The notes under the pieces are model-generated. The model was given only the letters and a program-made list of their open reading frames with translations. It had not been told where the DNA came from and made no database searches. Shown here piece by piece: positions 52,492 to 55,017 of a stretch of DNA of 64,000 bases; within the stretch, counting starts at the first letter, position 1, and the number at the start of each line of letters is the position of its first letter. A program made the position numbers and the translations under genes. Source of the DNA: Verrucomicrobiota bacterium. GTDB lineage: Bacteria > Chlamydiota > Chlamydiia > Chlamydiales > SM23-39. The stretch is taken from assembly GCA_018968815.1 (NCBI GenBank), contig JAGWZL010000001.1, forward strand, positions 61,178 through 125,177. The letters run 5' to 3'.

Positions 52492-54121
52492 AATCTTTTC
52501 AACGACAGTCTCTCAGTTTCTCTTCATTGGCTTGGCCCTTGGCCTCTACGCTCAGCCTGTGGAGCGCTTCCAGTTTTCTGAACAGACGCGCCAGTATTTT
52601 AGCGAAGAGCTGCCCCCTTCTGCGCAAAAAAAAGGGCCTCATGGCTCCCACACGGCAAAAAAAGTCAAAATCACAACATGCCCGATGGAAGAGGGTGGAT
52701 GGCAGGCCCGCTTTTCATTCCCTTATCCAGTCAAAGTGACGCACAGGATAGAAGGAAATCGGCTCTACGTCGATTTCAATCAAACGATCGATTCCCCCGA
52801 TTTGACCGATATGCAAGAGAGGCTCAGCTATTTAATTTCTCAATTTTCCAACGGAGTCCACACTCTGTATCTCGCAGGCAAAAGAGATGTCTCCTATCAG
52901 GTTGCAAGCGGCGATCAGTGGGTAGAGATCACAATCATGCCCAAAGAGATCGATCCCGCTGTATCGAGCCGCTCTCTCAAAATCGCCTGCGCCAGATTGC
53001 AGGTGGAAAATCGGCATTATAAACAGGGGTTTGCTGCCCTAGATCCTCTGCAAGACACTCAGGATAAAGATGTTGCGGTCTTGCTGGCCGAATTGGAGGG
53101 GCTTGTTCCTCTTTGGCAAAGGCAGGTGCAGGTGTTAGACAGCGCGCTTGCTCAAGATCCTTTGGATGAAGATTTGTATCGTTTGCGCCAAGAGGCTTTT
53201 TCTCCCCATTCTTCCTTTCTCGCTTATGAATGGCAGTGGCAAGACACGCTCACGTTGGCCATCATTCGGGTGAATCGAGTGCAAGAAGAGGCCATCATTC
53301 AGCGAACGTATGACCACACTCTCTATCTTGGGGCTGACTATCAATTGTGGAGCGGGCATGTCAATTCGCTCTCCAATACGCAGGGAGCCGACGTCCCTTT
53401 CACGGGAGCGCGCAATCAGGGCTCTGTATCGTTGCGCAATGAATGGGAGAATGGCAATTTCTGCAAGGGCACTTTCTATCTGCAAGAGCAAAATGTGTAT
53501 GGAGGAGGTATTGCGGCCGGTTGTTTGGTTCCGCCTCTCCAAGGGCAATTCTGGATCTCAGCCGATTATCACCGCCCTTGTTGGGAGATTTTTGAGGCGT
53601 TTGCCTATCATGGGCGAGAGGACAAGGTGGAATTTCAACTCACTTCCGTTTACAACCGTTATGTCAATTGGGAGATCGGCGGCGGCGGAAGGCGCGTGGG
53701 GATTACGCACACGCCCACAGGTTATGCCTCCATCTTGGCCCATGCAGAAGTGGACATCAATCTGATCATCACCAATCCGATCCTTGCCTTTCACTATTCC
53801 TATGAGGCCGAATATGTCGAATATTTAAAGACCAAGATCGGCGTGGAGGGGCCTTACAATCCGGTTCCTCTCACAAGTTTTGAATTCCACACTGTGTCGG
53901 CTTATCTTTATTTTACTTGTAGAGAAAACTTGTTTATCACTATTTATGGTGGAGAAACCTTCAATCGCCTTGGGATTAAGAGTCCCAATGCGGGCATTGA
54001 AGTAAAGTATGTAAAACCTTGCCGTTTTGAGATGCAGATGGGAGCTTATCAATTTCCCAGTCAAGTGGCTCCAGGCACCGCTGAACGTTTTGTTTTGGCA
54101 AGGGTGACGGCGAGGTTTTGA
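52484..54121 (+). CDS. Outer-membrane beta-barrel protein (PelB porin-region equivalent)
   Basis: GTG start overlapping the upstream gene by 8 nt. Signal peptide 'FLFIGLALGLYAQP'. The C-terminal half has alternating hydrophobicity and the protein ends in 'ARF' (a terminal aromatic residue is typical of OMPs). Confidence 0.6.
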   Translation: MNKIFSTTVSQFLFIGLALGLYAQPVERFQFSEQTRQYFSEELPPSAQKKGPHGSHTAKKVKITTCPMEEGGWQARFSFPYPVKVTHRIEGNRLYVDFNQTIDSPDLTDMQERLSYLISQFSNGVHTLYLAGKRDVSYQVASGDQWVEITIMPKEIDPAVSSRSLKIACARLQVENRHYKQGFAALDPLQDTQDKDVAVLLAELEGLVPLWQRQVQVLDSALAQDPLDEDLYRLRQEAFSPHSSFLAYEWQWQDTLTLAIIRVNRVQEEAIIQRTYDHTLYLGADYQLWSGHVNSLSNTQGADVPFTGARNQGSVSLRNEWENGNFCKGTFYLQEQNVYGGGIAAGCLVPPLQGQFWISADYHRPCWEIFEAFAYHGREDKVEFQLTSVYNRYVNWEIGGGGRRVGITHTPTGYASILAHAEVDINLIITNPILAFHYSYEAEYVEYLKTKIGVEGPYNPVPLTSFEFHTVSAYLYFTCRENLFITIYGGETFNRLGIKSPNAGIEVKYVKPCRFEMQMGAYQFPSQVAPGTAERFVLARVTARF

Positions 54122-55017
54122 TGAGGCTCCGGTTACGTCTTTACGCTTGTTTAGAAATCGGAATCTTTTTTCTTGTTCTATTTGGGATTGCTTATTGTTT
54201 TGACCTTCCTTACAACTACTATGATTTTACGCTGCACCCTTTTTGGATCATTGTGATCCTGATGGCTGCGCAGTACGGGACGAATGAGGGGCTTTTAGCT
54301 GCCGCTGTGAGCGCTGTGATTTTGCTCGCTGGCAAACACCCTCCTCACAATTATTTGCTCGATTCTTTTGATTATTTGTTTGCCTTGATTAAGCTGCCCC
54401 TTCTTTGGTTTGTCACAGCGGTTGTCTTGGGTGAACTGCGTTTCAAACATATCCGCGAATATCAGACGGTCAAAGCGGTGGCCGCCGCCGCAGAGCGGAG
54501 GGAGCAAGAGATCGCCGAAAGCTATCAATCCCTCAAAACGGTGAAGGAGCGGCTTGAATTGAGAGTGGCGGGAGAGATGGAAACGGCTCTTACAGCGCTC
54601 CATGCATTGCAAAAGCTCGAAGGACCAAATCGAGAGGTGATCTTACAAGAGAGCGCAAACCTCATTCGCGCTTTAGCGGCTCCTGAAAAGTTTTCTTTGT
54701 ATGTACTGCAAGAGAACAAACTGATTAAAGCCTTGAGTGTGGGCTGGACGGCTGACGATCACTATTTGGAGACGTTTACTGCCGACACTCCCATTTACCA
54801 AGAGATCGTGGACAGAAAAAACCTGCTTTCCGTATTCACAGTGGAACACTCTCTTCTGGGAACAGAAGGGCTCGCTGCTGCGCCGCTCATCCATGATGGA
54901 AAAGTATTCGGCATGCTGAAAGTGGAGGCGATCCCTTTCCTTCGCTTGAAAATGGCAAATATCGACATGCTTCGCTCTCTGGGAGAGTGGATTGGCAAGG
55001 CGCTGGCGCACCTATGA
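54121..55017 (+). CDS. pelD: PelD-like inner-membrane protein (4 TM + GAF-like), without the GGDEF-like c-di-GMP receptor domain
   Basis: The ATG at 54121 overlaps the upstream TGA by 1 nt. Four N-terminal TM helices and a coiled coil precede the GAF-like 'LYVLQENKLIKALSVGW...APLIHDGKVFGMLKVE'. It is 298 aa, versus about 455 aa remembered for P. aeruginosa PelD. Confidence 0.6.
   Translation: MRLRLRLYACLEIGIFFLVLFGIAYCFDLPYNYYDFTLHPFWIIVILMAAQYGTNEGLLAAAVSAVILLAGKHPPHNYLLDSFDYLFALIKLPLLWFVTAVVLGELRFKHIREYQTVKAVAAAAERREQEIAESYQSLKTVKERLELRVAGEMETALTALHALQKLEGPNREVILQESANLIRALAAPEKFSLYVLQENKLIKALSVGWTADDHYLETFTADTPIYQEIVDRKNLLSVFTVEHSLLGTEGLAAAPLIHDGKVFGMLKVEAIPFLRLKMANIDMLRSLGEWIGKALAHL

Follow-up and report, generated by a model that had tools for sequence, protein, structure and literature searches.

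A chlamydial PelD without the c-di-GMP receptor domain, and candidate phosphorelay genes flanking its pel operon

Synthesis of the Pel polysaccharide is licensed by the binding of cyclic di-GMP (c-di-GMP) to PelD (PMC2170427, PMC7112168). We analyzed the pelD gene (positions 54121-55017, forward strand) of a complete pel operon in a 64,000-nucleotide stretch of DNA (hereafter the window; positions 61,178 to 125,177 of contig JAGWZL010000001.1, assembly GCA_018968815.1) from a genome named Verrucomicrobiota bacterium and placed in the Chlamydiota (Chlamydiales, SM23-39) by its GTDB lineage. We found that the product is a PelD orthologue of minimal architecture, consisting of four transmembrane (TM) helices, a stalk helix and a GAF domain, which keeps all parts of PelD except the c-di-GMP module, and that a full set of phosphorelay parts with intact catalytic residues flanks the operon. 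From this arrangement we infer that phosphotransfer may take place and may gate Pel synthesis in place of c-di-GMP; the reading that PelD has become a scaffold while the phosphorelay controls Pel output has, in our judgment, about an even chance of being right.

Results

PelD ends after its GAF domain

The open reading frame (ORF) at 54121-55017 is real and has a 298-amino acid (aa) product. The TGA of the upstream gene overlaps the pelD ATG (54121) by one base, the A, and the pelD stop codon (55015-55017) overlaps the ATG of the next gene, pelE (55014-55016), in an ATGA junction, so that there is no space for hidden sequence between the two genes and, as the original prediction had stated, no room for a missing domain. 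GAF_3 was the sole Pfam family on the protein (residues 172-297, E = 1.4e-11), with the end of the profile reached (129/129). Neither GGDEF (PF00990) nor PelD_GGDEF (PF16963) was found on it by Pfam with the E-value cut-off raised to 10, and no SDR family was found by Pfam.

A structural model of PelD generated with AF2 from a 40-sequence alignment (mean pLDDT 88) placed TM helices at residues 7-26, 41-52, 54-70 and from 82 onward, the fourth of which runs on as a long stalk to residue 165 and is followed by a GAF fold at 171-297. The N-terminus begins with TM1 at residue 7 and carries no extension. When the model was compared with the PDB using Foldseek, the matches were GAF domains only, with the cAMP-bound GAF domain of Lcd1 (5w10) at the top and the GAF half of Pseudomonas aeruginosa PelD (4etz, 4etx, 4dn0) among them at 17-19% identity over ~150 columns, and a GGDEF fold was absent from these PDB matches. 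Pfam at E ≤ 10, AF2 and Foldseek thus agree with the prediction of a PelD-like protein that stops after the GAF domain without a c-di-GMP receptor module, and no GGDEF-like fold lies within the 298 aa. The length of about 455 aa given for canonical PelD in the original prediction is borne out by PDB titles (‘PelD 156-455’).

Assignment to the PelD family was clear among predicted proteins, with proteins named PelD by JGI matching at E-values of 1e-63 to 1e-76 over 98-99% of the query and 272 cluster representatives matching at E ≤ 1e-30. PDB sequences, including the P. aeruginosa PelD chains, gave no phmmer match to the 298-aa protein at E ≤ 1, and the family profile, although it matched diguanylate cyclase structures (6d9m, E = 6.7e-5), reached PelD only weakly (E = 0.18), such that the tie to characterized PelD rests on fold and synteny. 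The residues that are invariant in the family are kept (P40, G53, P93, W96, G104, S192 and G264-M-x-K-x-E269), and the last of these, the GAF core motif, is invariant in PelDs with and without the additional domain.

Loss of the GGDEF-like domain is old and shared by a clade

PelD homologues numbered 59 in a search of 5.8 billion proteins and fell into two size classes, with 25 short forms of 304-349 aa and 34 long forms of 438-505 aa. Nearly all of those most similar to the window PelD (44-55% identity) were short. In the alignment, all short forms end 0-36 residues from the last residue of the window PelD, while the long forms have 125-182 further residues. A tree of the shared TM and GAF region placed 21 short sequences, including the window PelD, in one clade, whose other members are 304-327 aa proteins from environmental Chlamydiota. 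The sisters of this clade are PelDs of 453-465 aa from Chlamydiales metagenome-assembled genomes (MAGs; L002, L004/P0022, P0014), which extend 134-152 residues beyond the GAF domain, compared to 0 in the window PelD. In a second tree, based on PelF and PelG, the grouping of L002 and L004 with the short loci had 100% bootstrap support, but the branching order within that group was not settled. Both trees were neighbor-joining trees, with 200 bootstraps on Kimura distances for PelF and PelG. The closest PelD loci among species-representative genomes were those of Parachlamydiaceae, Chlamydiales and Chlamydiota MAGs, and the threonyl-tRNA synthetase (ThrRS) of the window was 86-89% identical to proteins of Chlamydiales and Chlamydiota MAGs.

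In the long forms, the additional segment is a degenerate GGDEF domain whose consensus has R-x-x-D five residues before the degenerate GGDEF position, as scored from a hidden Markov model (HMM) alignment of a divergent domain. This RxxD is present in the sister chlamydial PelDs (LRTVD, LRSVD and LRAVD) and has been lost in other long PelDs of Chlamydiota (L041, L061, L071, L076). Because the stop position is common to the whole clade, the loss of the GGDEF domain is old and clade-wide and not a truncation that arose in one genome. The comparison of orthologues that had been called for therefore modifies the original description of a truncated protein: the protein does stop after GAF, but at an end point shared by the short clade, while the sister long forms keep the GGDEF-like domain.

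Short PelDs also occur beyond this clade. Among the best 150 PelD-family members from a library of 1.84 billion cluster representatives, 18 (~12%) were short, 110 were long, 19 were ~600 aa and three were fragments. A single origin of all short PelDs was ruled out, as L091 and L092 are placed elsewhere in the tree of PelF and PelG, L092 grouping with Azospirillum (99% bootstrap) and L091 joining the chlamydial loci in 0 of 200 bootstraps. A further locus, L093 (10001-11347), encodes a 312-aa PelD followed by a 109-aa ORF with weak matches to PelD_GGDEF and GGDEF (E about 0.02), a layout suggesting that a long PelD was split or frameshifted recently, unlike the clean loss in the window.

We searched for c-di-GMP components that might lie nearby. 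No GG[DE]EF, DDFGTG, HD-GYP or PilZ motif was found in window ORFs of more than 150 aa, and there was no Pfam match to the GGDEF, EAL or PilZ families among the ~50 window ORFs scanned. We also trained an HMM on the C-terminal domains of 49 long PelDs and ran it over ORFs of ≥ 50 aa in all six frames; neither the window nor the short-clade loci yielded a split-off PelD-type GGDEF ORF. One candidate, a PilZ domain in the N-terminal 120 aa of the ORF of an accessory GT2 glycosyltransferase (RPVSR...NRSGG), was rejected, with no Pfam match at E ≤ 10 and no such extension in the L082 orthologue. The conserved part of that ORF begins at about residue 120 and its first ~120 codons are not conserved; the N-terminal 120 aa are probably non-coding, and the true start probably lies later than 59312.

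A full set of phosphorelay parts flanks the operon

Genes for a hybrid histidine kinase (HK), a stand-alone Hpt protein and a single-domain receiver (REC) surround the pel genes (Table 1). The Hpt gene is the first of the pel operon, co-oriented with and 9 nucleotides (nt) before the GH114 glycoside hydrolase gene. Its phospho-accepting His lies in AVHKLAGNSG, and the His of AVHKLAG is conserved across eight Hpt homologues. At the other end, the REC gene runs toward pelG on the opposite strand, and the two genes share 53 nt at the 3′ end of pelG. The REC residues are intact (the D11-D13 acidic pair, D60, S88 and K110), and the protein carries no DNA-binding output domain, such that direct transcriptional regulation by REC is not possible.

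The kinase gene is divergent from the Hpt gene and the pel operon. Its product contains MASE1 (residues 25-307), HisKA (328-391), HATPase_c (439-551) and Response_reg (575-687) domains, and we could read an H-box (SHEIRTP) and a receiver motif with the acceptor Asp (LILMDLLMP). Its C-terminal Hpt-like domain (44049-44441, reverse strand) scored 20.4 bits, below the gathering threshold, and has Gly in the His column, so that an external Hpt is needed. This domain resembles a retained pseudo-Hpt; all pel-linked Hpt proteins have His at that position. Conservation of the MASE1 kinase with the operon was considered and rejected, as it was found in the window only and not in any related locus; L081 carries another kinase, a GAF-HK.

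Phosphorelay genes often accompany PelDs without the I-site

The linkage was assessed in 174 pel loci from genomes and metagenomes, of which 144 had a long PelD, 24 a short PelD and six a cut one. Homologues of the window Hpt or of the L091 Hpt occurred in eight distinct loci, all with a short PelD, and in 0 of the 144 long-PelD loci. The Hpt gene lies directly before GH114 in the window and in L003, and within the divergent operon of accessory GT2 and phosphodiesterase/nucleotide pyrophosphatase (NPP) genes in L082. It forms an Hpt-REC fusion divergent from GH114 in L086 and L099, an Hpt fusion to UDP-glucose dehydrogenase (UGDH) 3′ of pelG in L085 and a REC-Hpt-UGDH fusion, again 3′ of pelG, in L001. 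L091, which lies outside the chlamydial group, has Hpt, GH114, other pel genes, a short PelD, PelE, PelF and PelG, then REC. Across the distinct short-clade loci in which the region upstream of pelA was visible, eight of nine had HK, Hpt or REC there. Orthologues of the window REC, 52-62% identical to it, adjoin pel in each of the loci that have one (L089, L001 and, as a fusion to Hpt, L099), and their conservation equals that of PelD itself.

The sister loci with intact RxxD (L002, L004/L087, L088) have a plain UGDH of 443-465 aa and no phosphorelay part. In six loci with long PelDs that lack RxxD (L041, L061, L159; L109, L116, L160), pelG is followed directly by a ~400-aa HK and a single-domain REC. 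An HK within 600 nt of the cluster was found in six of the 21 RxxD-less long loci compared to 0 of the 124 RxxD-intact loci. REC adjacency was discarded as a marker, being non-specific: a REC gene stood beside 29 of the 124 RxxD-intact loci, mostly of Azospirillum. The specific signals are adjacent Hpt and HK genes.

Two further features of these loci were observed. In full-length PelDs with HK and REC after pelG, RxxD is replaced by GPLS or PANA (L041, L061 and L159, at 15.4-17.2 kb; L109, L116 and L160). Separately, enzymes of the UDP-glucose/GDP-mannose dehydrogenase family carry an N-terminal REC-Hpt (L001, 14881-16944, 687 aa) or Hpt (L085, 12425-14014, 529 aa), and the genes of both adjoin an epimerase gene and the pel operon.

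Candidate control of Pel output

PelD is reported in P. aeruginosa as the scaffold of the PelD-E-F-G complex. In the reading that we favor, the window PelD would stay the inner-membrane scaffold of this synthase complex, with c-di-GMP no longer read. The MASE1 hybrid kinase, its own Hpt-like domain being dead, would pass phosphate to the stand-alone Hpt, Hpt would pass it on to the single-domain REC encoded next to pelG, and phosphorylated REC (or Hpt) would switch Pel production on or off through protein contact. Two published statements are in keeping with this reading: diguanylate cyclases are reported absent from Chlamydiales (PMC10745434), and chlamydiae are described as having kept histidine kinases and Ser/Thr kinases while losing other transducers (PMC1183210). 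The contact target could be the synthase complex (the PelD GAF domain or stalk, PelE or PelF), which is favored by the position of Hpt and REC at opposite ends of the synthase operon, or the nucleotide-sugar supply, which is favored by the Hpt-UGDH fusions; within this reading, we do not rate direct gating of the synthase above precursor control. We put forward tentatively a bolder version, in which Pel synthases would fall into two regulatory types, loss of the I-site, by GGDEF deletion or RxxD mutation, was repeatedly met by an operon-encoded phosphorelay and phosphorylated REC or Hpt docks on the PelD GAF domain or stalk, or on PelEFG, as an allosteric ‘on’ signal.

The original prediction had named the flanking phosphorelay as a candidate, and comparative evidence adds support to that candidacy: Hpt is first in the operon, REC abuts pelG, and both are kept with short PelDs and fused elsewhere. 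It had also stated that activation must be wired differently; here ‘must’ was too strong, since an ungated scaffold or control of precursor supply alone would also fit.

Several observations weigh against phosphorelay control of a scaffold PelD. The MASE1 kinase is window-specific, and it is assigned to Hpt and REC by its closeness to them and by its dead Hpt-like domain. L095, a short-clade locus with both flanks visible, is without any phosphorelay part, as is L092, which has an independent short PelD, and the presence of REC beside RxxD-intact clusters makes REC adjacency alone unspecific. Most short loci belong to one clade, with about three to four independent lineages in all, and the link of REC and Hpt to PelD appears as synteny and fusion only. 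The enzyme that carries fused Hpt is a UDP-sugar dehydrogenase, and no fusion is to PelD, a pattern that hints at control of precursor supply no less than at synthase gating. Finally, the search for c-di-GMP genes covered 64 kb of the genome, and the RxxD of the sister PelDs is a sign that c-di-GMP is in use in some environmental Chlamydiota, which conflicts with the published statement that the order Chlamydiales lacks diguanylate cyclases (PMC10745434).

Another explanation, which we find possible though doubtful, is that PelD is a scaffold only and the synthase is ungated after translation, output being set by transcription or nucleotide-sugar supply and the relay acting there, for instance on the UDP-sugar dehydrogenase or the accessory GT2, NPP and epimerase genes, or outside Pel. 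The fusion of Hpt to UGDH in L085 and L001, and to no synthase subunit, fits this explanation, as do the location of Hpt within the accessory GT2-NPP operon of L082, the short PelDs of L095 and L092 without a nearby relay, and the pel-dependent biofilm that a TM and GAF-only PelD still permits in Streptococcus thermophilus JIM8232 (PMC7112168). It is harder to reconcile with the Hpt gene being co-oriented with and abutting the first pel gene in the window, L003 and L091, with a REC that abuts pelG and has no DNA-binding output domain, and with HK and Hpt adjacency that follows I-site loss specifically; in addition, no UGDH was found in the window that could be the target of Hpt.

The GAF domain could itself be a ligand sensor, whether newly so or from the outset, responding to another small molecule (for example cAMP, cGMP or c-di-AMP) in place of c-di-GMP. 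We consider this unlikely. The top structural match is a cAMP-bound GAF domain, but the Foldseek likeness is that of a generic GAF fold, at 16-18% identity, and the invariant core motif is common to the c-di-GMP-dependent long PelDs and hence not a new pocket. Chlamydia makes c-di-AMP (PMC10745434), and c-di-AMP or ppGpp has been put forward by the authors of work on streptococcal PelD; a GAF sensor would nevertheless leave the conserved linkage of Hpt and REC unexplained.

Control by c-di-GMP in trans, with a degenerate-GGDEF, PilZ or other receptor encoded elsewhere docking on the short PelD or another Pel subunit, is less likely again. It draws on the view being limited to 64 kb of the genome, on RxxD kept in the sister PelDs, such that c-di-GMP may exist in the lineage, and on L093, in which PelD is split into GAF and GGDEF ORFs. 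Against this stand the absence from the window and the other short-clade loci of a PelD-type GGDEF-like ORF in any frame, the absence from the window of GGDEF, EAL, HD-GYP and PilZ matches or motifs, and the reported lack of diguanylate cyclases in Chlamydiales; moreover, the leftover ORF of L093 lies directly after pelD, whereas in the window pelE overlaps the pelD stop. A last possibility, that the short gene is a pseudogene or that a full-length pelD was misassembled or frameshifted in error, is effectively refuted. Truncated PelDs of that type exist, as in L093, but nothing specific otherwise speaks for it. The stop position is common to 20 or more relatives that were assembled independently and are 40-55% identical, no remnant of lost sequence remains at the ATGA junction with pelE, the invariant family residues are kept and the AF2 model is confident throughout.

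The pel operon, accessory genes and other features of the window

The pel operon lies on the forward strand, and every junction in it is overlapping or nearly so, including those of the PelE-like, PelF and PelG genes directly 3′ of pelD (Table 1). The operon is intact, and its genes are translationally coupled.

Table 1. Phosphorelay, pel and accessory genes in the window, with coordinates and supporting evidence.
Gene product	Positions	Strand	Evidence
Hybrid histidine kinase, divergent from Hpt/pel operon	44046-46523	-	Pfam domains above gathering thresholds
Stand-alone Hpt, 92 aa from ATG 46540 (mechanical ORF 46462-46818)	46540-46818	+	Pfam Hpt 47.7 bits (cut-off 24.6), E 1.8e-12
PelA-like GH114 glycoside hydrolase, separate gene	46828-47640	+	PF03537, E 1.1e-13
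717-aa conserved protein, slot of remaining PelA	47651-49804	+	No Pfam match
PelB-like TPR protein	49801-52491	+	TPR families
545-aa protein, signal-peptide-like N-terminus, slot of PelB C-terminal part	52484-54121	+	No Pfam/NCBIfam match
PelD, GAF_3	54121-55017	+	Pfam, AF2, Foldseek, homology
PelE-like, membrane N-terminus and TPR, 319 aa from ATGA-overlap ATG	55014-55973	+	TPR_16/TPR_19 at 241-286
PelF GT4 glycosyltransferase	55970-57448	+	NF038011, E 1.2e-95; DUF3492 and Glycos_transf_1
PelG	57450-58883	+	PF16933, E 6.5e-103
Single-domain receiver (REC), 129 aa	58831-59220	-	Response_reg 71.8 bits
Accessory GT2 glycosyltransferase	59312-60385	+	PF00535, E 1e-19; orthologue in L082
Type I phosphodiesterase/nucleotide pyrophosphatase family (alkaline-phosphatase-like)	60310-61620	+	PF01663, E 3.3e-7
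NAD-dependent sugar epimerase/dehydratase	61601-62644	-	PF01370, E 4.9e-43

A separate GH114 gene is found in the equivalent position in L001, L003, L086, L089, L091 and L099. Every related pel locus encodes a homologue of the 717-aa protein, which in L082 is fused to GH114. The likely start of the PelB-like gene is ATG 49801, in an ATGA overlap, with the mechanical ORF starting at 49696; this gene is fused to the following one in L081 and L082. The 545-aa protein is kept in related loci, either separate or joined to the TPR part, and may correspond to the porin part of PelB. The PelE-like protein has no additional domain and fits the PelE of related loci in position and length. No pelC-like gene was present in the window operon. 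We also observed that pelA and pelB are each divided into two genes (46828-54121), a layout that recurs in chlamydial loci and L091, with fused versions in L082 and L081.

On the 3′ side, the accessory protein of the PF01663 family has orthologues in L081 and L082 (E about 1e-146 to 1e-150), and homologues of the epimerase adjoin pel clusters in many loci. GT2 and a 430-440-aa PF01663 protein form a conserved pair beside short-PelD operons (window 59312-61620; L081 27-1349; L082 860-2826).

Additional features were noted elsewhere in the window. Three tandem collagen-like genes (13960-18620, reverse strand; G-P-T/G-x-T repeats, Pfam Collagen 1e-31) encode proteins with signal-peptide-like starts and a common C-terminal domain of ~130 aa, and are flanked on both sides by GT2 and TPR glycosyltransferase genes (12744-13943, 18609-20051). 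A 1253-aa ORF (21495-25256, reverse strand) contains ~20 tandem repeats of ~33 aa (…FAELTCPEPSxFWMDGIAF…) and a C-terminal inverse-autotransporter beta domain (PF11924). Genes for a Bro-N protein, a Schlafen/AlbA_2-HATPase_c_4-HTH protein and a DUF4258 and HTH pair (25479-28616 and 33844-34687) may represent a small mobile or defense-type islet. At 37948-39446 (reverse strand), a UPF0137 gene (PF03677, 1.7e-81) adjoins a ParA-type ATPase gene beside thrS and purB-like housekeeping genes; pairs of this type (pGP6-D/pGP5-D-like) are known from chlamydial plasmids. An 858-aa ORF (41487-44063, forward strand), located between thrS and the kinase gene, had no Pfam match at E ≤ 0.1. The product of an ORF that runs past the window end (62806-64000, forward strand) is an unusual repeat protein of eukaryote-like type, a WD40 beta-propeller with multiple blades (WD40 E 2.7e-56).

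Discussion

Implications

These results document complete pel operons in environmental Chlamydiota, a phylum absent from the pel literature searched: Chlamydiae were never combined with pelD, pelF or pelG, and the operon-classification paper mentions neither Chlamydiae nor Verrucomicrobia. They raise the question of what role a biofilm-type cationic polysaccharide has in these organisms. How Pel synthesis starts without c-di-GMP is an open question stated for streptococci, still without a candidate mechanism in that group (PMC7112168, PMC7890745, 10.1101/2024.04.20.589940), and the locus and its relatives provide a testable candidate for a c-di-GMP-free switch, with HK, Hpt and REC embedded in the pel operon and co-varying with loss of the c-di-GMP site across several lineages. 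Loss of the PelD I-site was not linked to an operon-encoded two-component system in the literature searched. If phosphorelay control is correct, a second-messenger input would have been replaced by phosphotransfer on one molecular machine. Under the bolder version, the window operon would be the clearest example, having Hpt as its first gene and REC abutting pelG, and Chlamydiota of the obligate-intracellular type would make a regulated Pel-like exopolysaccharide.

Comparison with known systems

The window PelD lacks the feature by which PelD is defined as a receptor, and it falls outside all four classes described so far (Whitfield & Howell). With class I PelD (P. aeruginosa, Bacillus cereus: TM, GAF and degenerate GGDEF) it shares the operon slot between pelB-like genes and pelE, the four-TM N-terminus, juxtamembrane helix and GAF fold, and the partners pelE, pelF and pelG. 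It differs in lacking the C-terminal GGDEF-like domain of ~140 aa with its RxxD I-site, and this absence leaves the window PelD without a structural basis for c-di-GMP binding.

Streptococcal class IV PelD, such as that of Streptococcus intermedius, comprises a degenerate SDR domain, TM helices and GAF without GGDEF, and occurs in genomes without diguanylate cyclases, with regulation unknown (PMC7112168, PMC7890745, 10.1101/2024.04.20.589940). As in the window, GGDEF was lost in a lineage reported to be without diguanylate cyclases while the pel operon was kept and is apparently functional. Unlike class IV, which has an N-terminal SDR domain, the window PelD begins at TM1, and it belongs to a diderm whose export genes resemble pelA and pelB. 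A further difference lies in the accessory genes, which are Hpt, REC, HK, GT2 and NPP-like in the window, whereas streptococci have CotH-like kinase, polyphosphate polymerase and DUF genes. The closest likeness in minimal TM and GAF architecture is the PelD of S. thermophilus JIM8232, which results from transposon interruption and with which pel-dependent biofilm is still formed (PMC7112168). That disruption is recent and strain-specific and also removed the SDR part, whereas the window architecture is ancestral to a deep conserved clade (40-55% identity). According to a review, PelD has three domains in all studied Gram-negatives and class IV is exclusive to streptococci; the short chlamydial PelDs correct both generalizations, that of three domains in all Gram-negative PelDs and that of GGDEF loss in streptococci only.

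The phosphorelay genes have a different set of counterparts. Multistep His-Asp-His-Asp phosphorelays combine a hybrid kinase, an Hpt protein and a single-domain receiver of the CheY/DivK type that acts by protein contact. In the literature searched, no such relay was tied to a Pel synthase. The window set resembles these systems in its hybrid HK with H-box and REC, its separate Hpt with HK(L/M)AG and its stand-alone REC with the DD...D...S/T...K residues, and it is set apart from them by the additional His-less Hpt-like domain of the window kinase.

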